From positions 20,379 to 84,378 of the forward strand of contig JACRIE010000042.1 in NCBI GenBank assembly GCA_016220165.1: DNA of 64,000 bases, written 5' to 3'. The position numbers and the translations under genes are program-made. The DNA comes from Candidatus Peregrinibacteria bacterium. Lineage in GTDB: Bacteria > Patescibacteriota > Gracilibacteria > UM-FILTER-43-11 > JACRIE01. Below the pieces are notes generated by a model. The model was not told the origin of the DNA and searched no databases. It saw nothing but the letters and a program-made list of their open reading frames with translations. The stretch's first letter is position 1. Every line of letters starts with the position of its first letter. Below, in pieces: positions 45,089-63,324 of the stretch.

Positions 45089-45142
45089 AATTCGTAATTA
45101 AAACGCAGAAAAAATCCTATCAAAAAAATCCGTCCTTAGCCA

Positions 45143-45171
45143 TTGCTTTTATAACGACAAAATGGTATAAT
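45143..45171 (+). promoter_or_regulatory. sigma70-like promoter
   Basis: TTGCTT, 17 nt, TATAAT, 30 nt upstream of ATG 45201. Confidence 0.5.
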
Positions 45172-45200
45172 AATTAGATTTAATCTTTAATCCCAAAGAT

Positions 45201-45656: not shown

Positions 45657-45694
45657 AACCGTGCATTCAAATAAAAATCAATAAATTTTAAAAA

Positions 45695-46309: not shown

Positions 46310-47336
46310 AGGCCGCCTCCGAAAGAGCTTTCGCGTACCCGTCATACAGCGCCGCGTCATTTAGGAATGGAGCTTCTTGGGCCATGCGGCTCGCGAGAGC
46401 ATGAATGGCGCTGATGACAACATCCATCCGAACCGTCGTGTGCAGCACGGCAACAACCGCTTTCTGAAAATCGCTCTGGGCGGTTTGATTCAAAACACCG
46501 TCAATCCATGCCGCAGAAAAGCCTGCAGGCTTCTGCTGTATTTCGTGTAAACGATAACCCCGTGGCCCCATCACGCCCGTCACCGCTTCAAAAATATCAA
46601 CCAGCTCCATCAATTGCATGGCCTTTTGCACTTTCGGATCCTCAGCTCCGGGAGCCTGCTCGCGATTGTAGCGTGAATGATGACCGATCATAACCGCTTG
46701 GGTCAAAGGGCCAAGACGATCAAAAGCCCCTGATTCCACATGATTCATGCGATCGGCAACGACCTCGGAGCTCGTATGGGATTTGATAAGACTCATTTCC
46801 GCATCGGTAGGGCGACGGCCAACAACTCCGAGCGCCTCATAAAACGCGGGATCATAAACCGTATCATCTTCGGACATCCGCGCTCCCTTGAGCTTGCCGA
46901 CATCGTGCATAAAGGCTCCTCTGGCCAAGTCGTCCTGTTCTTCGGAAGTAAAATCAGCAAAAAGTTCGGGGTGTTCGTTGTATAAAGCCATCATGATAAG
47001 ACCCACGCCCACGCTGTGCCTATAGGTTTCCGGATGATGGCGCTGGAGCGCTTCCAGAGTCTTTTGGACTTCGGGGTGACGCTCGCAGAGTTCAACAAAA
47101 CCGCGTTGAGTCCGGGCTGAGTCGCTATTGATCGCGGCGCCGCTGATACGAAAAAATAGGGCTTCCCTCGCGGCACGTTCTTCCGGGGTAGGCTTCACCT
47201 CAACTGGAAAAACGGCATCCGTAGCCGCAAGGCGAGCCGCTTCTACGGCAATCAAACGAGGATCCCTTTCCGCCGCGGGTGACGCGGCTTCCGGGGAACC
47301 GACAGAATGAATAAGCTGATCAGGAACTGAAGCCAT
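46266..47336 (-). CDS. HD-domain (metal-dependent phosphohydrolase) protein
   Basis: HSVGVG, FMHDVGK and IGHHSRYN follow the spacing of HD / HD-GYP-like domains, but no GYP motif is present. The listed ORF starts at TTG 47342; ATG 47336 is preferred. Confidence 0.65.
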   Translation of the reverse strand: MASVPDQLIHSVGSPEAASPAAERDPRLIAVEAARLAATDAVFPVEVKPTPEERAAREALFFRISGAAINSDSARTQRGFVELCERHPEVQKTLEALQRHHPETYRHSVGVGLIMMALYNEHPELFADFTSEEQDDLARGAFMHDVGKLKGARMSEDDTVYDPAFYEALGVVGRRPTDAEMSLIKSHTSSEVVADRMNHVESGAFDRLGPLTQAVMIGHHSRYNREQAPGAEDPKVQKAMQLMELVDIFEAVTGVMGPRGYRLHEIQQKPAGFSAAWIDGVLNQTAQSDFQKAVVAVLHTTVRMDVVISAIHALASRMAQEAPFLNDAALYDGYAKALSEAAFRPAVQASPALAAA

Positions 47337-47488
47337 AAACAATACTTTTTAGGAGGTAAGTATATTACTATACTATACTTTAAGTATATTGTCAATACAC
47401 ATATTTTGACAAAATATCAAAAAGTATTAATATAATAAAACTGAAATACTGAACTCGAAAAAAATTCTGATTTTATAAGTAGTTCAGT

Positions 47489-47986
47489 ATGAATAACCCA
47501 AAATTTATGGAGCCACAATCCACACAAGACGGCATCGTTTGGGTCAAACCCGAAAACATCGGGGAAAATATTGATTTAAAGGTATTAGGACTGCGGGAAG
47601 AAACCTTGCGGCTCGCTGAAAAAAACCGCGAAAAAATAGGCCATACATTGGTTTATTACGCTCATTTCATGGCCGTTCAGCTCGCCCGCTTCCTTTCCCG
47701 AAAATACAAAGGAAAAAACATTTTAGCGTCTGACTGTGAAATGGCGTTATTGCCGGATCTTGTCAGAGACACGCGCACAGCGCTGACATTGACTTTCCGC
47801 GTGTCTATAGATGTCGGCTACCAGGAATACTGGGATGTAACGCTCGCCAAAAAGCCCGATGGAATGATCGACAATACCGTTCCTGTGAAACTTAAGGACT
47901 TTACCGCCGAATTCGCAAAGGCAGAGACGCGAAGAGCGCGGTCGGGCGGAGCAACACTCGGTGGCCGTACCCCCGTTCTCTCTTAA
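47489..47986 (+). CDS. hypothetical protein
   Basis: 165-aa ORF with no recognised domain. Confidence 0.5.
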   Translation: MNNPKFMEPQSTQDGIVWVKPENIGENIDLKVLGLREETLRLAEKNREKIGHTLVYYAHFMAVQLARFLSRKYKGKNILASDCEMALLPDLVRDTRTALTLTFRVSIDVGYQEYWDVTLAKKPDGMIDNTVPVKLKDFTAEFAKAETRRARSGGATLGGRTPVLS

Positions 47987-48038
47987 TCGCCGCTTTTATT
48001 AACGTTTATTCCCGCGACCGGCTGGCCCAGGACTTTTT

Positions 48039-48088
48039 CTCGTCTCTCGTCACTCGTCACTAGTCACTCGTCTCTCGTCACTCGTCTC
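48039..48088. repeat. CGTCAC-family repeat covering the VirD4-like gene stop
   Basis: CTCGTCTCTCGTCACTCGTCACTAGTCACTCGTCTCTCGTCACTCGTCTC supplies the last residues RRVTRDE and the stop. Confidence 0.8.
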
Positions 48089-50787
48089 TTCTTCGGTCTA
48101 TCTATCAGCCCCTTCTCCCCGCGATCCAATCCTCGCACAGGCGCTTCGTCGTCTTCGCGTCGTCCGCTCTCGCTCCAGCGCTTGATCTTGTCTTCCACTT
48201 CCTCGCGCGGACGCGCGTAGCGTTCGCGGGAAAGGCGGATGATTTTGTCGCGGCGGCCCTCCTCGATCACCAAATCCGGTGGCGCGAGCGTGGCCACGGA
48301 AAACGTCTTGCTGGGCATACCGTCGATGAGGAGCTTGGTGTACGCGTGGTACTTCGGGAGCGTCACGATGTCGTTCGGCAGGACCTCTTCTGAGAATTGA
48401 TTGGAGAAATACTCGGCGTCGTCGAAGCCCACCTGGAAGCAGATGCTCGTACCCACGTTGCCGAACACCGCGTCGCGCACCTCTTCGGACATCTGTTCAA
48501 TGTACTGGTTCGCCATGGTAAGATTGAGTTTGTATTTTCGTGCTTCTGAGAGAATTGTGGCAAACGAATCCGTGGCGAAATTCTGAAATTCATCCACGTA
48601 GAGATAGAAATCCGTGCGCTTATTCGCGACCACGTCCGAGCGGCTCATGGCGTCCAGTTGGAATTTGGTGATCAGCATGGAACCGAGCAGCGATGAGTTA
48701 TCTTCGCCGATCTTGCCCTTAGAAAGGTTCACGATAATGATCTTGTTCGTATCCATCATGAAGCGCACGTTCATGGTCGATTTCGACTGCCCCACGATAT
48801 TGCGGACCATGGGGGACGAGAGGAACTGCCCGACCTTATTTTGGATAGGTGAAATCGCTTCGGTGCGGAATTTGGGCTCCATCTTGCCAAACTCATCTAG
48901 CCAGAAACTCTTCACCATGGGATTTTCGATCGTGTTCACGACCTTACGGCGGTAGTCGTCATCCACCAGGATGCGCATGATGCCGAGCATGCTGGCCCCG
49001 GGGAATTCCGTGAGGGCGAGAATAGTGTTGCGGAGGATGTGTTCAAGGCGCGGTCCCCAGCTTTCCGCGTACATCTTTTTAAAAACACCGAGCAATCCGG
49101 AAGCGATGAGTCCGCGATGCTCCGGCGTGCCGATCGAGGACTCGAGCATGTTGAAAGCGATCGGATACCCCGTGTCCGATGGATCGATGATCACCACATC
49201 ATTCGTCCGGTGCGCCGGCACAAAGTCGATCATGCGTTCCGCCAGATCGCCGTGAGGATCGATCACGGCCACGCCCTTGCCGCGCAGGATGTCGGACTGA
49301 ACCATGTTTTCAAGCAGGGTCGATTTGCCCATACCCGTTTTTCCGATGATGTAGATGTGACGCCGACGATCCGTATCGCGGATGCCGAATCTCTGTTTAA
49401 TTCCGCGAAAAGACGATGTCCCGAGTAACGTGAATTCGCTGGCGGGCACCTGCCCTTCGCGGGGCAGATTATGCGGCGGCTCCAGCTTGCGCGACATCAC
49501 CCATAAAACATTGGAAGCGGGCGTGCTCCCTTCGGACACCTGTGGCAGATGGAAAATCGTTGCCAACTCCTCCACGTTCATCACCATCGTCGCGGTCACC
49601 ACCGCGCGCTTGAGATACCGACGGAATACGGAACGATTATGCTCATTCACGCGGGCGATTTTAAAACCATTGAGGCTGGGAAGATTGAATTGCTTGAAAC
49701 TACCGGCGATCTCTTTAATTTTTACCTCCGCGTGAGGTAGATTTTCCGGATATGCCAGATACACTATGCGGATATTGGCATCAAAGGAAAGCTGGGTCAC
49801 TTTATCCACGCCGGCCGCGATCGGATCTTCGCGGTCGTGGGTACGGGACACATGCTCGTCCATGTCTTTGTCGTCCGAATCCTGGGCGCTCTGCATTTCA
49901 AGAATGCTCAGCCCTTTGCCGCGGATAGCCCAAAAAAAGACGTATAACGGACTAAAAAACAGCCGTTTCCAAAATCCACGGACGAGATAAATACGGGTCG
50001 CTAACGTCTCAAGCCAAAAAATACCGCGGAACAATCCGCGATTTACTAGGCGGAGACACTTAATCCCGCGCTTGCGCCACCAGTCCCCCAACGGCTGGAT
50101 CGTGATTTGGATCCACGCCTGCTCATCCTGAGCGCTCAATTTAGAAAGAGTCGCGATAATGCCGGACAATGGTTCCGTCGCGAGACGCGTCAGCTTATCT
50201 TCGAATTGAGCGAAACGCTTGATAGGATAAACCTGAGGCTCGGTGAATTTTAATTCCGCAGTAATAGGCTGTGGGCGCGCTAAGGGCGCGCCGGAATATT
50301 TCACGGGCAAATGCTCCGAACCTTTTACTTCTTTTTTTTGTACAGGCAGTTTCTTCTCCTGAGTCATGTCGAAGGAACGAACTGCGTCTCCTCCCCCGCC
50401 AAAGGGACCCGTATAATCCTTCATCTCTTCGATTTCCACATCCGGATACTGGGCATAAATCTGGCTCTCCACCACAATCTTAAACCGTCGCGGCATCCAG
50501 ATAAAAAATTGGATAAGCCCATCCACGGACGCGATTTCAAAACTCAATCGCGGCTGTTGGAAACCGGACAAATACCGCCACAAGGACCATTCCTCATGAA
50601 GACCGTGCAACGCGGCGAATACCTGCTCCATCACAATCGGTCCCTTTTCATTCAACTTAGAAACCGAAACACGAATGAGACAGGAATCCTGTTGCCGCTC
50701 ATACCGGCTCCGTTGCGCGCTCAAAAATAACAAAAAAAGGAAGTAAGCGAGGAGGATCCCTGCGGCAACGAATAACCACAACGTCAT
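48064..50787 (-). CDS. VirD4/TraG-like type IV coupling-protein-family ATPase with large N-terminal membrane-anchored domain
   Basis: N-terminal TM helix, Walker A GKTGMGKST, Walker B-like DFYLYVDEFQNF. The C-terminal half has the TraG/TraD-type layout. Confidence 0.7.
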   Translation of the reverse strand: MTLWLFVAAGILLAYFLFLLFLSAQRSRYERQQDSCLIRVSVSKLNEKGPIVMEQVFAALHGLHEEWSLWRYLSGFQQPRLSFEIASVDGLIQFFIWMPRRFKIVVESQIYAQYPDVEIEEMKDYTGPFGGGGDAVRSFDMTQEKKLPVQKKEVKGSEHLPVKYSGAPLARPQPITAELKFTEPQVYPIKRFAQFEDKLTRLATEPLSGIIATLSKLSAQDEQAWIQITIQPLGDWWRKRGIKCLRLVNRGLFRGIFWLETLATRIYLVRGFWKRLFFSPLYVFFWAIRGKGLSILEMQSAQDSDDKDMDEHVSRTHDREDPIAAGVDKVTQLSFDANIRIVYLAYPENLPHAEVKIKEIAGSFKQFNLPSLNGFKIARVNEHNRSVFRRYLKRAVVTATMVMNVEELATIFHLPQVSEGSTPASNVLWVMSRKLEPPHNLPREGQVPASEFTLLGTSSFRGIKQRFGIRDTDRRRHIYIIGKTGMGKSTLLENMVQSDILRGKGVAVIDPHGDLAERMIDFVPAHRTNDVVIIDPSDTGYPIAFNMLESSIGTPEHRGLIASGLLGVFKKMYAESWGPRLEHILRNTILALTEFPGASMLGIMRILVDDDYRRKVVNTIENPMVKSFWLDEFGKMEPKFRTEAISPIQNKVGQFLSSPMVRNIVGQSKSTMNVRFMMDTNKIIIVNLSKGKIGEDNSSLLGSMLITKFQLDAMSRSDVVANKRTDFYLYVDEFQNFATDSFATILSEARKYKLNLTMANQYIEQMSEEVRDAVFGNVGTSICFQVGFDDAEYFSNQFSEEVLPNDIVTLPKYHAYTKLLIDGMPSKTFSVATLAPPDLVIEEGRRDKIIRLSRERYARPREEVEDKIKRWSESGRREDDEAPVRGLDRGEKGLIDRPKKRRVTRDE

Positions 50788-50831
50788 TTCTATTTTTTAA
50801 GTTCGTGGGTATTGTATTACGTTTTTTGCAT

Positions 50832-50890
50832 CTCGTCACTCGCAACTCGCCTGTCCGTCCGAAGCGTCCGCGCGAAGGCAGGTCACTTCT
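50832..50890. repeat. CGTCAC-family repeat (variant hairpin core) between the VirD4-like start and the nfo stop
   Basis: CTCGTCACTCGCAACTCGCCTGTCCGTCCGAAGCGTCCGCGCGAAGGCAGGTCACTTCT; the nfo stop (50883-50885) lies inside it. Confidence 0.75.
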
Positions 50891-51710
50891 TAGTGATCTT
50901 CACAACGTCCTCATACAAATCCGGCGTCTCCAGGATGAGCGGCACCTTGCGGCGGTTCGCCTCGCTCAGAATGGCCTGAATCCCCTCCCAGCCGATTTCG
51001 CCCTGGCCCAGATCCGCGTGTCGGTCCACATGCGACCCGAGTGGTTTTTTGGCGTCATTGAGATGAATGACTTTTAATTTTTCCGCGCCCAGCAATCGAT
51101 CGAATTCTTTGAAAGTATCTAAAACGGCTTTTAGCGTCCGCCAGTCGTATCCCGCGGCGAATGAGTGGCAGGTATCAAGGCAGAAAAAAAGCCGCGAACG
51201 GTTCTTTTTCCCGATGCCCTCGTAAACACGGGCAAGCTCCTCAAAACTCACGCCGATCTCGGTGCCCTGCCCTGCGCCATTTTCGAGAAATAGAGGCACT
51301 TCGAGCGCTTCGCTTTCTTCGAGCGCACAATTCAGATTCTCGATCGTGTAACGAAACGCGTCCTCTTTTGGAAGCTCCAGGAATTTGCCCACGTGCGTCA
51401 CCAGCCCATGCCCGCCGATGCGCTGGAGAATATCCAAATCGAATTTGATGAAGTGCATGGCCGGTGCCGCCTCCTTCCAGGGCTTGGCGAAATTCGTAAA
51501 ATAGGAACTATGACCCACGATTGTTTTAATCCCATGCGCCTTAACGCCCTTTTTAAAATCATGGATATCCTCTTCGTCGTACGTCGATTCCCTCCACTGC
51601 TGCGGGCTATGCAAAAACAACTGCATGGCATTGCACCCGAGCGAATCGAGAAAGAAAGGAAGCGGAGCGAGTCCTTCGGCGATGGAAACATGAACGCCAA
51701 CGATCATCAC
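50883..51710 (-). CDS. nfo: deoxyribonuclease IV (endonuclease IV)
   Basis: IHLNDAKKPLGSHVDRHADLGQGEIG and TIM-barrel AP endonuclease 2 pattern. Confidence 0.85.
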   Translation of the reverse strand: MMIVGVHVSIAEGLAPLPFFLDSLGCNAMQLFLHSPQQWRESTYDEEDIHDFKKGVKAHGIKTIVGHSSYFTNFAKPWKEAAPAMHFIKFDLDILQRIGGHGLVTHVGKFLELPKEDAFRYTIENLNCALEESEALEVPLFLENGAGQGTEIGVSFEELARVYEGIGKKNRSRLFFCLDTCHSFAAGYDWRTLKAVLDTFKEFDRLLGAEKLKVIHLNDAKKPLGSHVDRHADLGQGEIGWEGIQAILSEANRRKVPLILETPDLYEDVVKITKK

Positions 51711-51809
51711 CAGTTACCAGTTACAAGTTACGCATCTATTATAATACTACAAAAAATTTGCCACGTTTAAGCAACATTTGATATAGTGACTCCCTAAAAT
51801 AAATTTTCT

Positions 51810-52193
51810 ATGCCGCCTTCCGCCCCATCTTCTGAATATTATCAGCGAACCATCCAAACGTTTCTCACCACTAATCCAGATGGCACAAGAAGCGCCGTCG
51901 CGGCCATTGAGGATCCTGTTCATCACATGGAATTAATGGCTCAGGTGAATCCTGAGGGGATTTTAAACCAAGTCTGCGTTGCAGATCGAAGCCGCCCTTT
52001 TAACGAATGCCGCACAGCGATCGCGCGGTCGGGAACAGTATGGAATGAAGTGGATCTTAAAAAAAAGGAAATGATTCACGATGTCAGAAAAAGATTGGAT
52101 GGCTGCGCTCATATCGCGGAGCTCGTTCGATATTTGTCCTTCGCGTTTCAAAAAAAATTAGACATTTACGTCTTCGATTGGAAACGACTTTAA
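51810..52193 (+). CDS. hypothetical protein (possibly DUF2889-like)
   Basis: HHMELMAQVNPEG..PFNECRTAI..GCAHIAELV loosely matches the H-x-M..P-x-x-x-C..C-T-H-L pattern I recall for DUF2889. Confidence 0.35.
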   Translation: MPPSAPSSEYYQRTIQTFLTTNPDGTRSAVAAIEDPVHHMELMAQVNPEGILNQVCVADRSRPFNECRTAIARSGTVWNEVDLKKKEMIHDVRKRLDGCAHIAELVRYLSFAFQKKLDIYVFDWKRL

Positions 52194-52611
52194 GATGTTC
52201 GCCTTTAGACGTCGGGTTAAGAATGGAAACCGATAACGGTATCTCGAGCCGTCTAAAAATCGCTATGCCATTCACAGGCAGTGGGCTCAATATACATCTG
52301 GACGGAATGCGTGTCACAGAAGCCGATGATTCTCTGGAGCGGCTGCTCAGAAATAGATCACCCGAAGATGGATTTAGAGCGCTCCGCGGCAACGGAGAAA
52401 GCCCGCCAGCGGAAGGAACGCGCCTTTTACTCCGGCTTTTTATGGAAACCCGGCGGGCCATTTTGACGCAACGATCAATCGAATTCCACACATTACGCGG
52501 AGCGATAAGAACCGGAAGAACTACTGGGGTCGAATGCGCTTTATTCAGAGATCTGATTCGTCCGTCAGAAAAAGTCTGACCTATATTCCGTATGGTGGAC
52601 CAAATTGTAAT

Positions 52612-54301
52612 TTAATAAACTTCCTTAAGGTAACACTCCTCACAAACCACGATCTCCAGCCGTTCATGAGAATAAGTCGTCTGAATCTTCGCTCCGCATT
52701 TCGCGCACGCGCGGTCGCAAACCCGTCGCGGGTTGCGCATGGCCATGCGCCTACGATGGCGCTCATCCGGATGCAAACGGGGAATCGGAAGCTTTTGATC
52801 ACGGTAGAACTTAAGCTCTTGGGGAATCAATTTAAACAAACGTCCGGTCGCCTCGCACTGAATCGCCCAATGAAGGACATCGTCCGGAATATCCGCGGTC
52901 CGATCCGGCAAACGCGCGCCGGGAATCATGCGGGTGGCATCAGGCTTTTTTTCAACCATGTCGTGCCACGACCAACCTTTTTTCGAAACCTCCGCTTTCG
53001 TCATCGGATAAAAATCCATGGCCATGCTTTCGTTATAACCAAAACAGGACATCGCGGTTGGAAAAAATTCACCCCATTCCTTCCTAGCCACCATCTGGCC
53101 CACAATCTGACCTACGATTTGTTCATATTTTTCCTTGGTGTACTGCTTGTTTAAAATACAATATTTTTTCTGCTTCAAGCCGATGCAGCCGAATAAATTC
53201 TGCGAGGAGTGGCACGCGAAGCAATACAGAAGATCCGTAATGTTATTCCAGCTGGAGATGGAAAAAAGCGTGCTCGTCGCATTCGTACCGATCTCAAGGG
53301 AATCATAACACTTCTCATTCCCGTAACCGAACGCGTACACGTCGTAACAGTCCTTTGAATCGTTATACCACGCGCAAAATTTTGCAGTCCTCGAGGTTAT
53401 CGGCGTCAAAACAGCCTTCGCACCCCTTAGAATTAAAGATGTGATTGCAGGCGGCCACATCCTGATTGTTCTGACCTTCATAGAACAGGTGCGGGTGCTT
53501 TTCGCAAAAAACTTTAAACTCCTTTTTTAAACTTTCGACCACCTTATAGGAAGTGAAATCGATGGCCGCTATTTTCTCTTCGTATTCCTCTTTCGTGCAC
53601 GATTGATTGCGGAAAACGTATTCCTTATTGCGCAGACCGTACGAGAAAAAGCAGTGATGACAATTCCGGCAGTCATACAAAAAACGTGACGCGCTGCACT
53701 CTTTGGTGTTCTGAGAGTAGGCGAGGTCGTACCCTTTTTCACAGTCTATACACTCATAACAAAGTTGGGAATCCATGATGTGGATATTATCGACGGAATT
53801 TTTATTACGTGGCATAAAAATGCCGTAATAACAATCCTCGTTGTAACCAGACGATGAAATTAGATAGCAATTCCGGTTGCGCGTGGTCGCCGTCGTATAT
53901 TCACAATTTTCCGCATTATTATTCTGGTGCACGGCCTGCTTGGGGACTTTCAAAAGCAGGTCTTTGAACTGCTCGAAAAACGGACGGCCGAAATCAAAGT
54001 CCTGACCAAAATCCATGGGATCCCAGTGGTCGCTCCACCAGCAGTCGCGGCAATAAACGGTGTAAGGACTTTCGGACGAAAGGACCGACATGGTGGATCG
54101 CTTGCAGAGATCGCACGGCCTCTTATAAAGCGTGCGCTCGTTCTTCCAGCTCAGATGGCGCTGCTGGCGGCAGTCCGGGCACAGCGTCGGTTCCGGAAGC
54201 GCGATCTTTTTCCCGCCCACGATGGGCGAAACTTTATCGTAAAACGCGCGGTCCGCGTCCGTGACAAGAAAATCCATTTTGCATTGAGTGCACGGCTTCA
54301 T
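52612..54301 (-). CDS. Cys-rich multi-zinc-ribbon protein, paralogue 1, interrupted by a +1 frameshift
   Basis: ORFs 53363..54301 and 52612..53481 join into one 562-aa reading frame if one A is removed from AAAATTTT (53376-53383). The total length of 1690 nt equals 3n+1. Colinear with paralogue 2; both end in CEECYLKEVY. Confidence 0.7.
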
Positions 54302-54443
54302 AAAAAAATAATTAGGTTCCGAGTTGTTACTATAATGCTACAATAAACAAATGTCAAAAATGTTGACTATCAATTTAAAATTAATTGATTTTGGCTCTTA
54401 ATAAATATAAAATTGTTGTCAGTTTAATTGACATTTTTAATCT

Positions 54444-55202
54444 ATGCTGCCTAAAAAACTGATCGGCGCTTTACAGGAATTGGGCCTCAGCGAAAAAGAG
54501 TCGTGCGTTTATCTAGCCATGCTCACGCTGGGCGAGGCATCCGTTCTGCAAATCGCGCGCGCCGCGGAGATCAAACGGCCGACCGTCTATCCGGTGCTCG
54601 AATCCCTGCAACAAAAAGGATTGGTGCATATCGACATCAGGAGCATGAAACAGCGCTACCGCGCCATCAACCCGGAACGGCTGGAACTCCTTTTGGAGCA
54701 ACGGCGAAAGAACCTCCTGTCCGCGCTTCCGGAGCTGACCGCGCTTTACAACACCGAAGGAAGCCAAAGCCTCATTCAGTATTTTGAAGGGCTTGAAGCC
54801 GTCAAAACCGTCTACGAATCGAATATCCGGGACATTCAGCCCCACGAAAACTACTGCGTGATCGCCGACCAGAAGAAGTGGATCGGGCTCGACCAGAAGT
54901 ATTTCGAAAACTTCACCTACCGCCGAGGCCTGCTCCCGATCAACATCCGGCTCCTCCTGAGCGACACGCCCATCGCGCGCGCGTTCCAAAAAAAAGAGCG
55001 CTATTACAACGAGACGATTCGGTTCCTGCCCAAAGGCACGGAGCTGACAACCAACCTGGTCATCACGCCGCAACGGCCCTTCATGCACCAGCTCACGCCG
55101 CCCGTGAACGGCATCGTGATCGAAAACAAAAGCGCCATCAAAACGCAGATGGAGTTGTTTGAAATCCTATGGAAGAGTCTCGATACGAGAGACTCGCAAT
55201 AG
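54444..55202 (+). CDS. TrmB-family transcriptional regulator
   Basis: The N-terminal winged helix LGLSEKESCVYLAMLTLGEASVLQIARAAEIKRPTVYPVLESLQQKGLV is the TrmB signature. Confidence 0.7.
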   Translation: MLPKKLIGALQELGLSEKESCVYLAMLTLGEASVLQIARAAEIKRPTVYPVLESLQQKGLVHIDIRSMKQRYRAINPERLELLLEQRRKNLLSALPELTALYNTEGSQSLIQYFEGLEAVKTVYESNIRDIQPHENYCVIADQKKWIGLDQKYFENFTYRRGLLPINIRLLLSDTPIARAFQKKERYYNETIRFLPKGTELTTNLVITPQRPFMHQLTPPVNGIVIENKSAIKTQMELFEILWKSLDTRDSQ

Positions 55203-55206
55203 AAGC

Positions 55207-55776
55207 TCATTCCAGACAAAACCCGATCCTGGGTTTATCCGCAGACGGTGGTGGATTCTGCAAGCGCTCAATGGCTTGCCATACTTTTCTGAAGTCCTGA
55301 TCGTTTTTATTGGAATGTTTTAAGAAAAAGGATTTAAGCTCTCGAAGCTCTTTGATTAATTCCTGATGAGACGACAAAATCTGTCGCAACCGGATAAAGG
55401 CTCAGACGACTTGTATACTCATCAATATTGCCCGCTCACTGCGAAGGACATTGGCAGCCATGACGACTCCGTGTTCAGTAAAAACACGCGGCAGATATTT
55501 AATATTTTTTCCGCGTACAGAAGCCGCCCCTTCGTTCAAGGTCACAATTTGTGACCTTGAAGATCTGGATTCTTCCCAGCTCAATTGAAACATAAAATCT
55601 TCCGGAAATCTCTTTAAATTACGCTTAACTGCCTGAATCAGTGCCTTAGTTTCAACGCCATAAAGCATAGCCAAATCACGGTCGAGCATCACGCGGTGAC
55701 CGCGAAGGACATAGATACAATGCTCAATTCGCTCAGCAGGAACAATGGATTCAGTTTTCATACTAAAATTCTTCAA
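55207..55776 (-). pseudogene. ORF6N-domain DNA-binding gene with an in-frame TGA
   Basis: ORF6N pattern IYVLRGHRVMLDRDLAMLYGVETKALIQAVKRNLKRFPEDFMFQL. The frame reads ..MSIQVV-TGA-AFIRLRQILSSHQELIKEL.. with the stop at 55402-55404, and the C-terminal helix continues in the same frame (55207..55389). Confidence 0.65.
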
Positions 55777-55797
55777 AAATCTCTAATCTCAAATCTA

Positions 55798-55826
55798 AAT
55801 ATAGTGAACATTTGTTCAAAAATCAA
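55798..55826 (-). promoter_or_regulatory. promoter with LexA-type box in the spacer (ORF6N gene)
   Basis: Minus strand reads TTGATT, spacer tTTGAACAAATGTTCAC, TATATT. GAAC-ATTT-GTTC is at 55806-55817. Confidence 0.5.
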
Positions 55827-55846
55827 GTCTTTTTAACGCATAAAAA

Positions 55847-56647
55847 TCAAACGTGATAAATCGTCGCCTGCTTCCACAGAAGCTCGAACGACTCGCAGTA
55901 CCCTTGCGCCACGACTTTATTATAAATCTGGATCACCACGATCTCCTCGGTATAAATCTCGATGGACACCATCTCCGGCGTGATGCGCGTGAGCGTGGGG
56001 CTGGAAAGGCCGACCGCAAGCGTTTTTAAAACCGTATGACTCTCGCGGGCGAACTTTTCCTTGAATGCCTGCGAGGTGACGTCCGGCGAAATCTGCCATT
56101 TCGCCACTTTATACTTTTTCAGTAGATCGAGGTAGCGCGGATACCACTCGCCAATCGCTTCATAAAAATAATCAGCCTGAGCGCCGCCAAGGATACGAAG
56201 TTTTTTATCGTATTTCGCGGCCGATTTAACCAGAGTTTCAAGATTCGCGGTAAAGCCGGAATGGCCGTACAAAATTTTAACTTCGAGCTTCTGCTCCCCT
56301 GCCTGTCGCTGTAGCTTGATCAACTCAGGGACGACGCTGTGTGCAACCGCCTCTTCTTCGCGGATGTGATCGAACAGGATGTCAGGATTGGAAGCCTGAA
56401 AATGCTTTTTTTTCTTGATGTAAACCATGCTGGCCAAATGAAGATTGACCAAGCGTTCCAATGCCTGATAAACCAGCATGCGATGAAGCTTGGTGTGACG
56501 AATGAGCGGCCCCACCGACGTGAGGCCGCTTTTGATGAGCGCCAAATAAACACGCGATTCATTTTTATTCAAACCGAGCTTTTGGAGATAGGATTCAAGA
56601 TTCATTGACAAAAATAGTAAAAAATGTTGATAAATGTTTAACCCCAT
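55847..56647 (-). CDS. TrmB-family transcriptional regulator (second copy)
   Basis: LGLNKNESRVYLALIKSGLTSVGPLIRHTKLHRMLVYQALERLVNLHL. Confidence 0.65.
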   Translation of the reverse strand: MGLNIYQHFLLFLSMNLESYLQKLGLNKNESRVYLALIKSGLTSVGPLIRHTKLHRMLVYQALERLVNLHLASMVYIKKKKHFQASNPDILFDHIREEEAVAHSVVPELIKLQRQAGEQKLEVKILYGHSGFTANLETLVKSAAKYDKKLRILGGAQADYFYEAIGEWYPRYLDLLKKYKVAKWQISPDVTSQAFKEKFARESHTVLKTLAVGLSSPTLTRITPEMVSIEIYTEEIVVIQIYNKVVAQGYCESFELLWKQATIYHV

Positions 56648-56683
56648 GCTAAATTATAGCCGAAAAATTTCTATCGTCAATAT

Positions 56684-57133
56684 TTGATGATAACTTTTAA
56701 TACAAAGTCTTTGCGGGTCTTCCCTCGAAATAAGATAACGTTCCTGGACATCACGGAACCGATCAACGCGCTGATCCAAAAAGAGGGAGGCGTCGAAGGC
56801 ATGGCGCATCTCTACACGCGCCACACCACCACCGCCATCCGGGTGAACGAAAATGAATCGAATCTGGTGCGTGATTTTCACGAATTTATGGAGTCACTAA
56901 TTCCTGCCAGCAAAGAATATCATCGCGACAAACTGCATCTGAGAGATTGTCCGGCGGACGAACCTAAAAACGCGCGCGCCCATCTGATGGCGCTCATGCT
57001 GGGAAGTAGCGAATCCATTCCCTTCCGCGACGGAAAGCTGATGTTGGGGCTATGGCAATCGATTTTCTTCATCGATTGCGACGGCGGCCGTCCCGATGGC
57101 CGCGAAATTTTAGTAACCATCGTATCGCCATGA
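56684..57133 (+). CDS. YjbQ/UPF0047 family protein (secondary thiamine-phosphate synthase-like)
   Basis: HLYTRHTTTAIRVNENE and HLMALMLGSSESIPFRDGKLMLGLWQSIFFIDCD. Confidence 0.7.
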   Translation: MMITFNTKSLRVFPRNKITFLDITEPINALIQKEGGVEGMAHLYTRHTTTAIRVNENESNLVRDFHEFMESLIPASKEYHRDKLHLRDCPADEPKNARAHLMALMLGSSESIPFRDGKLMLGLWQSIFFIDCDGGRPDGREILVTIVSP

Positions 57134-57513
57134 AAAAGAAATCGCTTCAAAAATTGACGTGGTCCGACCGCTTCACCTACGTCAAAAACGTCGTTTTCGA
57201 GGCGGACGATCTCGGACAACCAGGCGCGCGGTTCCAGGTGGTTAAATTCAAGCCCGGAACCATTATCAAGCCCCATTATCACAAAAAAACCTACGAAATC
57301 TTTTACATTCACAGCGGTCAGGGATCGCTCCGGATCAATCAAGAAAAATATCCTCTGAAAAAAGACGACATCATTTTGTGCGAACCCGGCGATCGGCACG
57401 CCCTTGAAAACACAGGGAAAAAAGACCTCGTCATTTTAATCTTCAAGACGAACGAGGTACCCGATAAAGATATTTTTTGGGATCTCTCGGCAAAATTTCA
57501 TAATGTGATCTGA
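57130..57513 (+). CDS. cupin domain protein
   Basis: IKPHYHKKTYEIFYIHSGQG..PGDRHALEN is the two-motif cupin signature. ATGA overlap with the yjbQ-like stop. Confidence 0.7.
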   Translation: MKKKSLQKLTWSDRFTYVKNVVFEADDLGQPGARFQVVKFKPGTIIKPHYHKKTYEIFYIHSGQGSLRINQEKYPLKKDDIILCEPGDRHALENTGKKDLVILIFKTNEVPDKDIFWDLSAKFHNVI

Positions 57514-57698
57514 GCGTCTTTCAGGATGGCATGAATCGTCCCCCGAGGAATATCCTTCGAATGGATCGGAACGACCACTTTCAAATTTTTTTTTAAATTT
57601 TTAAAAATCGCATGACTTCCATTTTGACGGATAAAATAGAAGCCATGCTTATACAAAATGCAGATAAGCTTTTTAGGGGTAAGATTATACTTTGGCAT
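57498..57698 (-). CDS. hicA: HicA-family toxin (second module)
   Basis: YKHGFYFIRQNGSHAIFKN..VVVPIHSKDIPRGTIHAILKDAQI. Confidence 0.7.
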   Translation of the reverse strand: MPKYNLTPKKLICILYKHGFYFIRQNGSHAIFKNLKKNLKVVVPIHSKDIPRGTIHAILKDAQITL

Positions 57699-57888
57699 GA
57701 CGCTTTTTTCTCGCTATAAGATCATGAAAAGTCTGATGCTCCATCTCGTCTTCGAGATACAATTCAATGGCATTTTTTAAATTTTTAATAGCCTCGGCAG
57801 GATTTTTGCCAAAAGAATGACAACCCTTAAGCTCGGGGCAATAAGAATGAAATTGTTTACCGTCAGGTTCTATATGAAAAGTAATCAT
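57685..57888 (-). CDS. hicB: HicB-family antitoxin (second module)
   Basis: ITFHIEPDGKQFHSYCPELKGCHSFGKNPAEAIKNLKNAIELYLED; overlaps hicA by 14 nt. Confidence 0.7.
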   Translation of the reverse strand: MITFHIEPDGKQFHSYCPELKGCHSFGKNPAEAIKNLKNAIELYLEDEMEHQTFHDLIARKKRHAKV

Positions 57889-57936
57889 AACTTAAACAAT
57901 GGTGGATGATTGTATTATAGCACGTATGCCGGAATT

Positions 57937-59594
57937 TCAGTAGACCTCTTTTAAATAGCACTCCTCGCACAAAATTTGCCTAAACTCCGTCGGATCCAGG
58001 GGGGTGGCGATCTCTTTTTTGCAATGAGCGCATAAAATGAGCCGCATCGTCTTTTGATTATGAAGGGCTAAGCGATCGCGATAACGACAGAAAGGACATA
58101 AACGAGGCAAAGGAATTGGAGCCTCCTGATAAAATTTAAACTCCTGAGCTATGATGCGGTAATTCTTTGAGCAATCCGAACAAGTCAAAATCTGATCCAG
58201 GATAGAACGATCCGTGTCGTGAATATCGTCTGGCAAAAAGACTGTTTCAGGAAAGTCTTGATGCTGGGATGTTGCAGGAGGCGACTGCCACTTCCAGCCA
58301 TTTTTAACGACCTCTTCTTTCGTCATCGGATAATCATAAAAAGAGACAGTATCGTTATAACCGAATAACAAAATCGAAAGGGGAAAAAATTCACCGTACT
58401 CGCCGTCCGCCAGCATCTTGGCTTTAATTCTTGGAACAAGCGCCTCGTAATCACTTTTTGAATACGATTGATTCAAAATACAATATTGATCTCCTTTGAG
58501 TCCGACACAACCGAAACAATGGTCGCATTGTTTACAGGAATTGCAGTACTCCACGTCGTGCGAACCCCAGCAATAACGCGAAAACTTGACGTTGTAAGAC
58601 TCAATCCCCGAGTTAGTGGTTTCATAAAGCAGGGTGGCATTACGCCCCGCCGTATTCGAATCGTAGCAATCTTTGGCGCCGCGCCAGACATGTTCGCCGT
58701 AAGCGCAGTCCTCGGCATCGTAGCAATGAAATACCTGGCGGCAATTCTTGGCATTCCGAATATAATCGCCGCTACAGCCTTCGGCATTTTCGATTTGCAG
58801 ATGTTTACGGGGCTGTGTTTTAAAAAAACATGAAATTGTTTTTTCAGCATTTGAATTACATCATGGCTCCCAAACTTCAATTTTTCGAGCTCCTGAAAAT
58901 AGGCGTCTTTGGAATACGGTTTATTAAAAATATAGAATTGTTTATTCCTCAGGTTCGCCGAAAACAAGCAGTGGTCGCAGTCCACACATTGATCCAGAAA
59001 CCACGAATCGCTGCAATTGGAACAATTTCGTGAAAAATGCAGACGATAACAATTAAAACAATGATTCGCCTCGTAACAACGTTCGCATTCATGAAGATAA
59101 CTGCAATCGATACAGTCCTTGGACTTTTGGATCCAGTAGCAAAAAAATGAATCCTCGCAATTGCTGCTTTCGCTGATCAGATAGCAATTGCGGCAATGGG
59201 CTGTCGATTCACAATAATCGCAATTCTCGTTGCCCGTACCGACGATGCCAAGCTGGGGCGCCGCATGCATCAAAGCATCGAACTGACTAAAAAATGAGCG
59301 GTTGAAATCATACGCACGTCCAGGGGCACGGCAATCGCGATCCTCTGCGCACCAGCAGGATTGGCAATAAATCACATAATCGCTTTCTTTTGGAAGCGTG
59401 GACACAAAATCCTGTCCGCAGCGATCGCACGGCCGCCGGTAAAACGCGTAATCATTGATATGTCCGTGACGCCGCATATGGCGGCAGCGAGGGCACCACG
59501 TCGGTTCCGGTACGTCCATTTTTTGATAAAACTGACGATCGGCATCGATCACCTCGAACGATGATAAACACTGGGAACATGATTTCATTGACAT
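57937..59594 (-). CDS. Cys-rich multi-zinc-ribbon protein, paralogue 2, interrupted by a -1 frameshift at U UUU UUA
   Basis: ORF 58473..59594 stops resembling paralogue 1 after ..KKQFHVFLK. The -1 frame then reads TQPRKHLQIENAEGCSGDYIRNAKNCRQVFHCYDAEDCAYGEHVW.. and runs into ORF 57937..58554. The total of 1658 nt equals 3n+2. Confidence 0.7.
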
Positions 59595-59642
59595 TAAAAA
59601 ACTTTTAAATTATACTTTAAATGTACACTTAAATTTATCTTC

Positions 59643-59906
59643 ATGAGTACGCTTATTAGCATCAAAGATCTCAGGACGTCGCTTTCGTCAGTCGCCGACG
59701 CCGTAGCGCAGGGTGAAAGTTTCCTCGTCATGCGGCATTCCAGACCGGCTTTTAAAGTCGAACCCCTAAAAGAGGAGGAGGAGGAAACCATGGACATGTA
59801 TGGCTGGAAAACCATTGTTGATTTTACGGAGGGGGGAAAAAAGAAAGGAATTGCAGCAAAAAAATTATTGAAGATCATGCGCGAATTTGAGAAAAAATAT
59901 GGATAA
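59643..59906 (+). CDS. Phd/YefM-family antitoxin
   Basis: ISIKDLRTSLSSVADAVAQGESFLVMRHSRPAFKVEPL. Confidence 0.65.
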   Translation: MSTLISIKDLRTSLSSVADAVAQGESFLVMRHSRPAFKVEPLKEEEEETMDMYGWKTIVDFTEGGKKKGIAAKKLLKIMREFEKKYG

Positions 59907-60141
59907 AATTTTAAAATTTTTAAAAAAAAGAAGAAAAAGAGAGAGATTGCTGCTTATGGCGTCTTTAGAATTAATAGAGCGCGATGAGCTACTTAATTTT
60001 GATATAAAAAAGCTGAAAGGATTTGATAGAAGATATAGGGCCAGAGTTGGTAAATTTCGTATAATATTTGAAAAGGGTGGAAGAAAATTAAATAGGATCA
60101 TCAAAGTGGACGAAAGAAACGAACAAACCTATAAATTTTAA
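59899..60141 (+). CDS. RelE/ParE-superfamily toxin
   Basis: KKLKGFDRRYRARVGKFRIIFEKGGRKLNRIIKVDERNEQTY; overlaps the antitoxin stop. The listed ORF begins at TTG 59887. Confidence 0.6.
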   Translation: MDKILKFLKKRRKRERLLLMASLELIERDELLNFDIKKLKGFDRRYRARVGKFRIIFEKGGRKLNRIIKVDERNEQTYKF

Positions 60142-60202
60142 AAATAGACCGTGACAAAAAAATAATTTATCCCTGGATAAGGATATAACCAGACCAATAA
60201 GA

Positions 60203-61318
60203 ATGAAAGTCGCCATTGTTCATGAACTACTGGTGAAACTCGGCGGCGCGGAACGCGTCGTAAAAAAGCTGTGCGACATGTTTCCTCAAGCGCCCATCTA
60301 CACGCTCATCCACAATCCCGACAAAACGAAGGAATGGTTCCGTGGCAAAAAAATCATCACGTCCTCCATTCAAAAATATTATGATTTCTATGCGAATCAT
60401 CGCATTTTGTTGCCAAAAATGGCGCGCGCCATCGAAGCGTTTGATTTTAACGAATATGACCTCGTCATTTCCAGCAGCTCCGCTTTTGCCCACGGCATCA
60501 AAACACGACCTCAGACCAAACATTTGTGCTACTGCCACTCCCCCATGCGCTACGCGTGGGATTACACGCACCAATACACGGGCAATATGAATCGGATCAG
60601 TCGCGTATTCGCGGCCATGGCGCTCCATAAAATTCGCCTATGGGATTACGAAACGTCGAGCCGCCCAGCCATAGTTCTCGCGAATTCAAAACACGTTCAA
60701 AAACGGATCGAAAAATACTGGCGGCGCGCGTCCGAAGTCGTCTATCCGCCCGTGAATGTAACGCGCTTTGAAGTTCACCCTGGCCACGAAAACTATTTTC
60801 TGATCGTGTCAGCGCTCACGGCTTTTAAACATCTTGAACTGGCCGTGGAGGCATTCAATCAAAACGGCCATCATTTGATCATTATTGGAGAAGGGCCGGA
60901 ATACTGGCGGCTTAAGGGCATGGCGAAAGAAAACGTCGAACTCCTGGGGCGAAAATCGGACAAAATGATCAAAGAATACATGGAACACTGTCGCGCTTTC
61001 ATTTTTCCGGGAGAGGAAGACTTCGGTATCACGCCGGTGGAGGCCATGGCCGCGGGAAAACCGGTGCTTGCCTACGGAAAAGGCGGCTGCCTGGAAAGCG
61101 TACAGGCAAGCATCAGTGGCGAATTTTTCAATGAATTAACCTCTGAAAACCTCAATGAGGGATTGAAAAAACTGCTGAGAAACGAAAAAAAATATGATCC
61201 GCAGGCCATCCGAAAAATCGCGGAGCAACTTGACGAATCCATCTTCGAAAAAACTATTCAGGAAACAATCTCGTCACTCGCCTGCACCGAGCTCTGTCGA
61301 GGGGTCACTATTTCTTAA
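60203..61318 (+). CDS. glycosyltransferase family 4 (GT-B fold) with repeat-derived C-terminal tail
   Basis: [19 protein letters not shown] motif. The last 15 aa ([15 protein letters not shown]) are encoded by a CGTCAC-family element. Confidence 0.8.
61270..61315. repeat. CGTCAC-family repeat in which two convergent genes terminate
   Basis: CTCGTCACTCGCCTGCACCGAGCTCTGTCGAGGGGTCACTATTTCT. Confidence 0.8.
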
Positions 61319-61751
61319 CTGTCTTCTTCTTGCCCAGCTTCTTTTCAACGACTTTCTTGCCTTCCTTCACGACGGTCTTTTTGGCCCTCTTCTTGGCGAC
61401 CTCTTTCTTTTCCGTTTCTTTGGCGGCCTTTTCAACCTCTTTTCCGTGTTCGGTTTCGTGAACCTTGCGGGTAATCTTCTCCTCGACCGATTCCTTAACG
61501 CGTTCCGCTTTTCTCTGCTGGATCAAACCTATTGCATCCTTTTTTTTCTTGGCGGCCTCCGTGCGAGCTCTGAACTTATCAACCATACCCGCCGTATCGA
61601 TAAGCTTCTGCTTGCCTGTATAAAATGGATGACAATTACTACAGATTTCAACGCGATAATGCTCTTGAGTGGAACCGAATTCATAGCTAGCGCCACAAGC
61701 GCAAACCGTTTTGGCCTTAGGATAATATTTAGGATGAATATCAGACTTCAT
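61308..61751 (-). CDS. rpmE: 50S ribosomal protein L31 (zinc-binding type) with about 75-aa Lys/Glu-rich C-terminal extension
   Basis: [30 protein letters not shown] is canonical L31; about 75 further residues follow. Confidence 0.85.
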
Positions 61752-61857
61752 ATTGAATACGATTAGCGATTAATGATTAGCGATTCGCGACCGAATTTTC
61801 TTGCGCTAATCGATCAACGCTAATCTCAAATCGAAATAAAAGCGTGGCAATTTTAAA

Positions 61858-63324
61858 CTATTTTTTACGCCGAGGCAAGGACTTTTTTTGAAGAGGAACA
61901 GGTCTTTTAATCGATTGTTGTTTAAAGGGAGAAAGGGGAAAAACAGATCGTAGTAAAAAAAGAAGAATAAGAAGCGCGGTCACTCCTATTAAAGCCCAAA
62001 CCACCCATCCGCGACGTGCTGTCACCAAAAGGCTCGTGGTTTGCGACTCTTTTTGGTTATCCGTAGCCTTTAAAAAAACTTTATAGACTCCCGGCTTGGA
62101 ATAACGATGATCGACAACCACGCCCTCCGCTTTTACGCCGTCCCCAAAATCCCAAAAATAATTCGTGATAATTCCATCGGGATCTTTGGATTTAAGGGCG
62201 TTGAAAGTAATAGAACGAGGGTTTATTGTTGACTGAGTGGGCTCAATCACAGGAAGGGGAGCCTTATTGTTATTATTCGGATCCGCGTTATCCCCAAGGC
62301 CGTCATGATCCGTGTCTTTCCATTCTTTGGGATCCAGCGAGAACGCGTCTTCTTTATCATTCACGCCATCGCTATCCGTATCCGCCAACAAAGGATTGGT
62401 GCCCTGCTGAATCTCCATATTGTCTCCAAGGCCGTCATGATCCGTGTCTTTCCATTCTTTGGGATCCAGCGGGAACGCGTCTTCTTTATCATTCACGCCA
62501 TCGCTATCCGTATCCGCCAACAAAGGATTGATGCCTTTTTGAACTTCAACAACGTCAGGAATACCATCCTTATCCGCATCTTTTTCTGCATTGTCTCCAA
62601 TGCCGTTATGATTCTCATCCGCCCATTCCTTCGGATCCGTAGGAAATGCATCCTGGACGTCCGGAACTCCGTCATTATCGTCATCTAAATCAGCATTATC
62701 ACCGATCCCATCTCCATCCGTGTCCTTCCACTCTTTAGGATTGAATGGGAACGCGTCTTGGGCATTGAGAATCCCGTCGCCGTCGATATCAGGGTCGTGG
62801 CGATTCCCGATGCCATCACCATCCAGGTCATTGTCAACAAAAATAGTGATTCGAACCTTATTGTTGTCGGTATTATCGCCAGTGGTAACTGTAGGTTTGA
62901 CGCGAATGGCAATCGTATGAGCTCCTGTGCGATCGGGAGTCCAATCAACAAACACATCATCCGTCTTTCCTCCAACTACGGAAATAGGTTGGTCGGTTCC
63001 GATATATTCCACTGTTAATTCATCATAAAAACGCACGACGCCGGTCAAATCCGCTTTCCCGCCGTTGTGGACAACACCATAAATGCGAACGGTTTGGTTT
63101 AAAATAACGTCATCTTTTAAAAGACGTATGTCCTCCTCCTTGAGATAGAGATCGTTGGCAAAATTAGAATTATCCGCGGCAAGAACTGGCTTCGTATAAA
63201 CATCGGTCACTTCGAGATCAGCCGTTTGGGCATACAGCGTAATAACCGCTCCTGTAAAAATATCGATAAAAAAGGAAAAAGACAGGAGCCCTAATGTATA
63301 AAAAAGAGTATTACGAAGCCTCAT
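61858..63324 (-). CDS. cell-surface protein with thrombospondin type-3 (calcium-binding) repeats, PKD-like domain and C-terminal TM anchor
   Basis: Signal/TM N-terminus, many DxDxDGxxDxxD repeats, WDFGDG (PKD-like) and a C-terminal hydrophobic helix followed by basic residues. Confidence 0.75.
   Translation of the reverse strand: MRLRNTLFYTLGLLSFSFFIDIFTGAVITLYAQTADLEVTDVYTKPVLAADNSNFANDLYLKEEDIRLLKDDVILNQTVRIYGVVHNGGKADLTGVVRFYDELTVEYIGTDQPISVVGGKTDDVFVDWTPDRTGAHTIAIRVKPTVTTGDNTDNNKVRITIFVDNDLDGDGIGNRHDPDIDGDGILNAQDAFPFNPKEWKDTDGDGIGDNADLDDDNDGVPDVQDAFPTDPKEWADENHNGIGDNAEKDADKDGIPDVVEVQKGINPLLADTDSDGVNDKEDAFPLDPKEWKDTDHDGLGDNMEIQQGTNPLLADTDSDGVNDKEDAFSLDPKEWKDTDHDGLGDNADPNNNNKAPLPVIEPTQSTINPRSITFNALKSKDPDGIITNYFWDFGDGVKAEGVVVDHRYSKPGVYKVFLKATDNQKESQTTSLLVTARRGWVVWALIGVTALLILLFLLRSVFPLSPFKQQSIKRPVPLQKKSLPRRKK
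62292..62530. repeat. near-identical 132-nt tandem duplication inside the TSP3-repeat gene
   Basis: CCAAGGCCGTCATGATCCGTGTCTTTCC... recurs with a 132-nt (44-codon) offset and only a few substitutions. Confidence 0.85.

Follow-up and report, generated by a model that had tools for sequence, protein, structure and literature searches.

In this work, we focus on a stretch of 64,000 nucleotides (nt) from a Candidatus Peregrinibacteria genome (assembly GCA_016220165.1, contig JACRIE010000042.1, positions 20,379 to 84,378), hereafter termed the window, and particularly on an island in it that carries two genes for cysteine-rich (Cys-rich) proteins, Cys1 and Cys2, and two TrmB-like regulators, TrmB1 and TrmB2. 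The reading that we favor, with moderate confidence, is that the region from 52.6 to 59.6 kb is what is left, in a state of decay, of a Cys-rich gene system under repressor control that is typical of Peregrinibacteria. The best supported composition of this island, to which we give a comparable degree of confidence, is that of a canonical TrmB1/Cys1 pair, an orphan regulator, an unpaired second Cys-rich copy and unrelated passengers. The Cys-rich family, its arrays and its private regulator/operator pairs are undescribed in the sources that we searched, while the regulators and the toxin-antitoxin (TA) genes are ordinary.

Three lesions and the probable decay of the island

Cys1 (52612-54301, minus strand) and Cys2 (57937-59594, minus strand) each carry exactly one frameshift and are otherwise open over their full length, each gene being split into two open reading frames (ORFs). 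In Cys1, the frameshift is found at 53376-53383 of the minus strand, within the run AAAATTTT, where one base is extra (A3 to A4), and the two ORFs (53363-54301 and 52612-53481) cover positions 2-308 and 303-561 of the family profile. In Cys2, one base is missing from a zone of T7, A4 and C4 runs (58809-58828, minus strand), and the two frames cover profile positions 2-278 and 257-561; in neither gene do the two halves leave a gap in the profile. The original prediction had already repaired both frames, and this repair stands, giving products of 562 and 552 amino acids (aa), which match intact homologues of about 560 aa over their whole length. What had gone unremarked is that both genes are pseudogenes, as is the nearby ORF6N gene. 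At the repaired Cys1 junction, EDCK is followed by FCAWYNDSKDC, which matches the corresponding segment (EDCKFCSWYNDSKDS) of the closest homologue, P0001, with no residue missing; this best homologue is 69% identical to Cys1 and is intact. The two repaired proteins are 37% identical to each other.

The third lesion lies in the anti-repressor-like ORF6N pseudogene (55207-55776, minus strand). An in-frame TGA at 55402-55404 results from a CGA-to-TGA nonsense change at an Arg found without exception in 7 homologues, and the read-through product still matches Pfam ORF6N (E 2.2e-30) and a PHROG anti-repressor (E 4e-23). The TrmB-like regulators and the TA genes of the window are intact. Single recent lesions inactivate Cys1, Cys2 and ORF6N, for which an annotation as pseudogenes is appropriate; at this locus at least, the organism probably has no working version of the system.

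It could be proposed that both Cys-rich genes are in fact functional, and that their frameshifts are sequencing errors, programmed frameshifts or phase-variable switches at homopolymers. There is indeed a single shift per gene in otherwise open frames, and both shifts fall in runs (A4T4 in Cys1; T7/A4/C4 in Cys2). We consider this very improbable. An independent assembly is identical across both sites: one Logan contig of run SRR12113407 (L079) is 100% identical over 11,120 nt to window positions 44444-55563, including the Cys1 site, and another (L080) is 100% identical over 4,724 nt to positions 57600-62323, including the Cys2 site. For this reason, we take the frameshifts as real rather than as slips of reading. 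Moreover, the other long ORFs of the 64-kb window show no evident split gene; three lesions in about eleven genes and no other split gene therefore argue for local decay rather than for poor sequence, and the nonsense mutation of ORF6N fits such a decay. The runs are also short for slipped-strand switching.

The comparison with related loci points the same way. A context survey, in which one genome per species was scanned, returned 78 loci, which we cite by L numbers. In 69 of them, 205 intact copies of the Cys-rich gene were found in one frame, and the broken copies found elsewhere (roughly 15-20) are interrupted at unrelated positions by different lesions. Programmed frameshifting was considered in particular and rejected: the gene of L046 is split near the same profile position but in another sequence and by another lesion, and in L017 a Cys codon is replaced by a TGA.

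In run SRR12113407, the Logan contigs stop at 55563, inside ORF6N, and resume at 57600, inside hicA. The stretch from TrmB2 to yjbQ and the cupin gene was therefore assembled on its own, possibly owing to strain variation or to a change in coverage.

The regulators and their putative operators

The island had been described as holding mirrored pairs of TrmB-like and Cys-rich genes. Just one pair is canonical, that of Cys1 and TrmB1 (54444-55202, plus strand; 252 aa), which diverge from a control region of 142 nt (54302-54443). TrmB2 (55847-56647, minus strand) and Cys2 do not form such a pair: TrmB2 has no adjacent Cys-rich gene and faces yjbQ, with the ORF6N pseudogene downstream, and Cys2 faces the phd promoter and has no TrmB-type dyad. 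Both regulators match Pfam TrmB (PF01978; cut-off 25.6 bits), TrmB1 with 66.1 bits (E 2.6e-18) and TrmB2 with 35.3 bits (E 1.1e-8); they score far below the cut-offs of the NCBIfam TrmB equivalogs and are 23% identical to each other. TrmB2 likely starts at M15 (56605), downstream of a promoter TTGACG-16-TATAAT at 56680-56653. We tried to place TrmB2 in the "T>" class, that of same-strand regulators (L013, L038, L059), and rejected this placement, as its best hits are partial matches to divergent-class regulators (23-35% identity); we make no claim about its class.

The proposal that short palindromes of the control region could be operators finds support for one of them, TGTCA-N7-TGACA. A perfect TGTCA-N7-TGACA dyad (O2) lies at 54417-54433 and a copy of it with one mismatch (O1) at 54352-54368; a third dyad, ATCAATT-N7-AATTGAT, is also present as described, at 54369-54389. 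With one mismatch allowed, TGTCA-N7-TGACA has 3 matches in 64 kb, 2 of which are inside the 142-nt spacer. On the minus strand, a promoter scan gives Cys1 a strong promoter, TTGACA-17-TATAGT (54357-54329), whose -35 element is overlapped by O1. On the plus strand, the trmB1 promoter is TTGATT-17-TAAAAT (54385-54413), and O2 starts just past its -10 element and overlaps the transcription start. TGTCA-N7-TGACA also fits a class of dyads that recurs in related spacers, where a dyad, mostly the 18-bp TGTnnn-N6-nnnACA, is found near the TrmB start. The inner arms of this dyad differ between loci and stay palindromic (TGTAGAA/TTCTACA, TGTTC/GAACA, TGTCTAT/ATAGACA or TGTGC/GCACA), and 19 of 38 spacers hold a TGT...ACA dyad, where shuffled sequences give an expectation of 4.2 and a maximum of 9.

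This geometry suggests the following mechanism. A TrmB1 dimer would bind the two TGTCA-N7-TGACA operators, 65 bp apart from center to center; O1 would then cover the -35 element of the Cys1 promoter and O2 the transcription start of trmB1. From the placement of O1 and O2 on the promoters, we infer that TrmB1 would repress both Cys1 and itself, until some signal releases the repression. The control region shares AAAAATGTTGA with the leader of trmB2, within a 21-nt stretch (54346-54366 and 56610-56630) that is 81% identical between the two, and this leader also carries an imperfect dyad, GTTAA-N7-TCAAC. Cross-regulation between TrmB1 and TrmB2 is possible. Elsewhere, the TrmB/Cys spacer of L048 (9821-9988) ends in about ten tandem heptamers (CGTAATT, CGTAATC or TGTAATT).

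The regulators have the same winged helix-turn-helix as TrmB and TrmBL2 (PF01978; structures 3QPH, 5BQT and 5BOX), an alignment of about 260 aa to full-length TrmBL2 and palindromes at their own promoters. The regulator profile aligns over its full length to the TrmBL2 structures 5BQT and 5BOX (E 6e-10), and the alignment to 3QPH covers only residues 7-154. Compared to the archaeal TrmB and TrmBL2, these proteins are bacterial (from Peregrinibacteria) and very divergent, and the sugar-binding domain is left uncovered by the alignment. Their predicted target is an array of Cys-rich genes instead of sugar metabolism, and their putative operator, TGTnnn-N6-nnnACA, differs from the TGM motif known for TrmB. 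The regulators of the family are 12-29% identical to TrmB1 and thus far more divergent than their Cys-rich targets.

The Cys-rich family and its arrays

A search with the repaired Cys1 protein returned more than 7,600 homologues. Nearly all of the best 120 have a length of 540-600 aa, with about 100% query cover; they come from Peregrinibacteria or Patescibacteria and are named "hypothetical" or "zinc-ribbon domain containing". Among 1.84 billion cluster representatives, the family counts at least 2,478 clusters (50% identity) at E <= 1e-30, nearly all of them from Peregrinibacteria. A copy is also found on a 3.3 Mb Bdellovibrionota contig; its closest relatives are Patescibacteria proteins, which led us to reject a separate clade outside the candidate phyla radiation (CPR) and suggests horizontal transfer. 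In seven loci (L004, L044, L061, L063, L065, L075, which is CP060226.1, and L077), the family genes seem to fall apart into many short ORFs when read with translation table 11, which fits TGA being a sense codon (code 25) rather than pseudogenes.

The original prediction could not assign the Cys-rich proteins to a described family, and profile and structure searches lead to the same outcome. Pfam and NCBIfam touch the terminal fingers only, and the core has no match in Pfam, NCBIfam, PADLOC, PHROGs or PDB sequences. The PADLOC-DB component models gave no match for P0001 or for the repaired Cys2 at E <= 0.1, the PDB sequence search returned only LIM-like noise, and no description of this family was found in the literature. 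The Cys-rich proteins reported in the Peribacter paper (PMC4736985) are others, much larger and extracellular, and do not belong to this family.

The architecture of the protein consists of a zinc module A, two domains B1 and B2, a domain C and a second zinc module A'. The N- and C-terminal modules had been noted as being of the same type, and they are clearly so: hhalign compares A and A' with a probability of 99.6% (E 8e-24). Both modules are Arg-rich and made of a treble-clef finger plus a CxxC-x17-CxxC zinc module, and both proteins of the window do end in CEECYLKEVY. B1 (126-235) and B2 (273-385) are a duplicated domain (hhalign E 5e-32). Each protein holds about 36 cysteines (6.5%). The central cysteines had been described as spaced every 18-20 aa or so; we find instead a 12-residue repeat and spacings in multiples of 3. 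The B1 Cys columns 145, 157, 169 and 181 are 12 residues apart, and Cys-Cys distances in the family are almost only multiples of 3. In the terminal modules, C4, C7, C41, C44, C532, C535, C553 and C556 are invariant or nearly so; the invariant Arg residues are R45, R514, R518 and R530, with R49 and R522 almost invariant.

The fingers that build modules A and A' are the same as two known ones, zf_Tbcl (PF13451) and zf_Tbcl_2, or CxxC-x17-CxxC (PF23477, TIGR04272). Of 60 homologues, 54 match zf_Tbcl_2 and 28 match zf_Tbcl (best E 7.9e-9), so that a zinc-finger family match and four Cys ligands are found for the family; the copies of the window score 20-25 bits on these models, just under the cut-offs of 24 and 27. 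In small proteins of Methanosarcina mazei, the CxxC-x17-CxxC domain binds zinc (PMC12704099). The difference from the small zf_Tbcl proteins is that the finger pair occurs twice here and flanks about 370 undescribed residues.

The AlphaFold2 model of the protein has a pLDDT (predicted local distance difference test) of 86.7 and a pTM (predicted template modeling score) of 0.87, and the C-terminal 184 aa reach a pLDDT of 90.6. Foldseek found no significant similarity to PDB or BFVD entries for either the full-length or the C-terminal model. The best E-values were 2.4 for the full length against PDB, 0.25 against BFVD (for the zinc ribbon only) and 2.5 for the C-terminal 184 aa, and the search for structural relatives was dropped since its only matches were zinc-ribbon noise. 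We take B1 and B2 for a narrow solenoid whose turns would each hold 12 residues, a reading drawn from the sequence period only. With its fixed Cys and its multiples of 3, this repeat presumably resembles the 12-residue Cys-rich beta-helices, such as the Tenebrio molitor antifreeze protein. It differs from the latter in that Foldseek shows no similarity in PDB and that the Cys-rich proteins have no ice-binding motif; a disulfide-bonded core is also unlikely, because these proteins lack a signal peptide. They would rather be cytoplasmic, zinc-stabilized scaffolds, whose Arg-rich terminal modules would bind nucleic acid or a partner protein and whose variable repeat domains would provide paralogue-specific surfaces. 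We hold this scaffold role tentatively.

In related genomes, copies of the gene follow one another on the same strand in tandem arrays, which reach 9-11 copies in 20 kb, or up to 9 when intact ones are counted. Within an array, the median of the best identity between copies is 43.5% and the highest value 54.8%, and the best identity to a copy in another locus has a median of 56.4%; for 165 of 177 copies, the closest relative lies outside their own locus. The array paralogues are an old, long-kept repertoire of distinct subfamilies and not a fast-duplicating set. Cys2 has no relative above 41% identity within the 78 loci.

The recurrence of the regulator/Cys pairing, which the original prediction had inferred from the window, is conserved in the neighborhoods of these loci: a TrmB-like gene is present in 39 of the 78. 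Among the 56 TrmB-like genes that were counted, 39 diverge from a Cys-rich gene at a distance below 600 nt, and 7 lie directly upstream of one on the same strand. This makes 46 of 56 directly upstream of a Cys-rich gene, the usual unit being T< C> C> C>. ORF6N genes of about 180-200 aa are found inside the arrays of L003 (7675-8256 and 20908-21507), L015 and L052, usually on the opposite strand, and thus occur together with TrmB-type repressors. Some copies are solitary. In two Peregrinibacteria assemblies (L010:7440-13033 and L011), single Cys-rich copies lie between purF and purD, after folD, and in L053 a single copy lies between asd and the gene of 2-oxoglutarate dehydrogenase E1.

The associated ATPase, the passengers and the place of the family in Peregrinibacteria

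Many arrays are followed by a gene for a coupling-protein-like ATPase. In 21-22 loci, neighbor-gene clustering finds such an ATPase, a DUF8128/DUF87/TraG-like enzyme termed type A (about 747 aa), on the same strand downstream of the array (L003, L013, L017, L051 at 7187-9427, L060, L161, L162 and others), with gaps of 15-249 nt for the 13 that directly follow an intact copy. Type A ATPases are 70-83% identical across many assemblies, and the flanks beyond them differ. In look-ups started from the ATPase, two of three loci show the divergent TrmB gene, at least one Cys-rich gene of about 560 aa and the ATPase, with other flanks that differ; the third, L163, is without the link. Like the type IV coupling proteins VirD4, TraG and TrwB, the enzyme that follows the arrays in related genomes is a membrane-anchored DUF87/TrwB/TraG-like ATPase. 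In contrast to type IV coupling systems, its interaction with the Cys-rich proteins is putative, no other type IV secretion component and no relaxase was identified in the part of the locus flanks that was scanned, and the ATPase of the window is another paralogue.

The latter, a membrane-anchored DUF8128/DUF87/TraG-like ATPase of 907 aa with Pfam hits, termed type B, is encoded at 48064-50787 (minus strand), downstream of Cys1 and on the same strand, with two genes between. It is 36-39% identical to the array-linked type A ATPases of 747 aa, and its closest relatives are found with Cys-rich genes in 2 of 80 metagenome loci. For these reasons, it was rejected as a member of the unit. On CPR metagenome contigs (L088, L092-L094, L099 and L100), type B ATPases often occur as tandem pairs of two paralogues.

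These observations allow one to propose that the Cys-rich proteins are cargo, adaptors or DNA-docking partners of the coupling-protein-like ATPase, within a secretion or DNA-transfer machine of an episymbiont. The conservation of the type A gene, its position downstream of the arrays and its recurrence with TrmB and Cys-rich genes amid differing flanks speak for such a role, as do the lack of a signal peptide on the Cys-rich proteins and their very conserved C-terminus. We nevertheless hold it to be rather unlikely. The ATPase of the window belongs to the other paralogue, and single Cys-rich copies occur in purine or central-metabolism contexts without any ATPase. We also looked for an anchor copy proximal to the ATPase and rejected it: from one genome to another, the copies nearest to the ATPase are not orthologues (33 of 156 best hits, where chance would give 44.8). 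The synteny in related genomes may be inherited, and zinc-stabilized proteins are unlikely secretion substrates.

The remaining genes of the island are passengers. The gene order and strands given by the original prediction are borne out by the ORF listing and Pfam. A YjbQ/UPF0047 gene (56684-57133, plus strand; PF01894, E 2e-32) and a Cupin_2 gene (57130-57513, plus strand; PF07883, E 1e-17) are followed by hicA (57498-57698) and hicB (57685-57888) on the minus strand. Three TA modules had been counted, and only two are detectable. The hicAB module is solid: HicA scores 66.2 bits (HicA_toxin, cut-off 27, E 2.7e-18), HicB 27.8 bits (HicB_lk_antitox, cut-off 27), and the two genes overlap at 57685-57698, as a HicAB pair. 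The second module consists of a phd-like gene (59643-59906) and a relE/parE-like gene (59887-60141) on the plus strand, which are small and overlapping, a geometry that fits a TA pair, behind a promoter TTGACA-17-TATACT at 59588-59616. The phd-like product stays under the Pfam cut-off (Phd, 23.2 bits against 29.8) and matches a PHROGs antitoxin (5.6e-5); the relE/parE-like product likewise stays under it (ParE, 14.4 bits against 23) and matches a PHROGs RelE-like toxin (2e-6). This pair is likely a candidate member of the Phd/YefM-RelE/ParE group. In the neighbor-gene clustering of related loci, yjbQ, cupin, hicAB and phd/relE do not recur beside arrays.

Such neighbors could suggest that the arrays serve in defense against phages or in inter-genome conflict and that the window is a defense island with TA modules. 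The hicAB and relE-like pairs and the anti-repressor-like ORF6N, which recurs in arrays, would agree with this, and so would a family that is multi-paralogous and lineage-restricted. This is highly unlikely in our view. The Cys-rich proteins have no PADLOC or PHROG hits, and no nuclease, NTPase or other effector domain was detected; their paralogues are old, with orthologues across species and none above 70% identity within a locus, which sets them apart from defense repertoires with fast turnover, and single copies sit in housekeeping operons.

The description of the island as mobile-looking finds weak backing. The nearest tRNA gene is about 15 kb off, none being closer than 15 kb, a flanking direct repeat was searched for and not found, and no integrase turned up among the genes scanned. 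The GC content of the island is slightly low (0.43-0.46, against about 0.48-0.50). An Rfam scan of 50-62 kb gave no match, and no further Cys, TrmB or ATPase fragments came up when 44-64 kb was searched in six frames with sensitive profiles. The DUF2889 gene (51810-52193) is separated from the end of Cys1 by a 418-nt stretch (52194-52611) that holds only an unannotated ORF of 118 aa (52223-52579) that has no PHROG match and no Pfam record. On the other side of the island, the gene at 61858-63324 encodes what is probably a surface protein, whose 488 aa comprise thrombospondin type 3 repeats, a PKD domain and, at the C-terminus, a hydrophobic segment; a giant PKD-rich protein with a T4SS_pilin domain that resembles it is encoded near the type A ATPase of L163.

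Several points weigh against the reading of the island as the remnant of a repressor-controlled system, or against parts of it. In 39 of the 78 loci, there is no TrmB gene in the scanned DNA, many arrays running off contig ends, and 20 copies are single ones in housekeeping contexts, such as folD-purF-[Cys]-purD. In the window itself, TrmB2 and Cys2 are not a canonical pair. The position of the dyad near the TrmB start argues first for autoregulation, and the case for control of the Cys-rich gene comes mainly from O1. As for the protein, B1 and B2 are modeled mostly as coil with short strands, 9 of their 21 Cys columns with at least 50% Cys reach 80%, and the zinc- and nucleic-acid-binding roles are suggested by motifs. 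Finally, the window and the Logan assemblies may share reads, and an intact allele may exist in part of the population.

Genomes of Peregrinibacteria are of about 1.3 Mb, and yet in some of them 1.5-2% of the genome is taken up by this 1.7 kb gene, in at least 12 copies. Since the copies persist from species to species as separate orthologous lineages, their role must be an important one. More tentatively, and as a possibility to which we give little weight for now, Peregrinibacteria would keep an ancient repertoire of at least a dozen different zinc-finger and Cys-repeat proteins with a new fold, every sub-array being controlled by a private TrmBL2-like repressor through an operator of its own. 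With the proteins coupled to the ATPase, this would make a new regulated system of cargo or adaptors that moves nucleic acid or protein between the episymbionts and their hosts. The practical upshot for the window is that only one TrmB/Cys pair is a real unit. Uncharacterized families are common in CPR bacteria. This one offers a confident new fold, repressor/operator pairs that have apparently co-diverged and a possible handle on the targets of the coupling-protein-like ATPases of the CPR.

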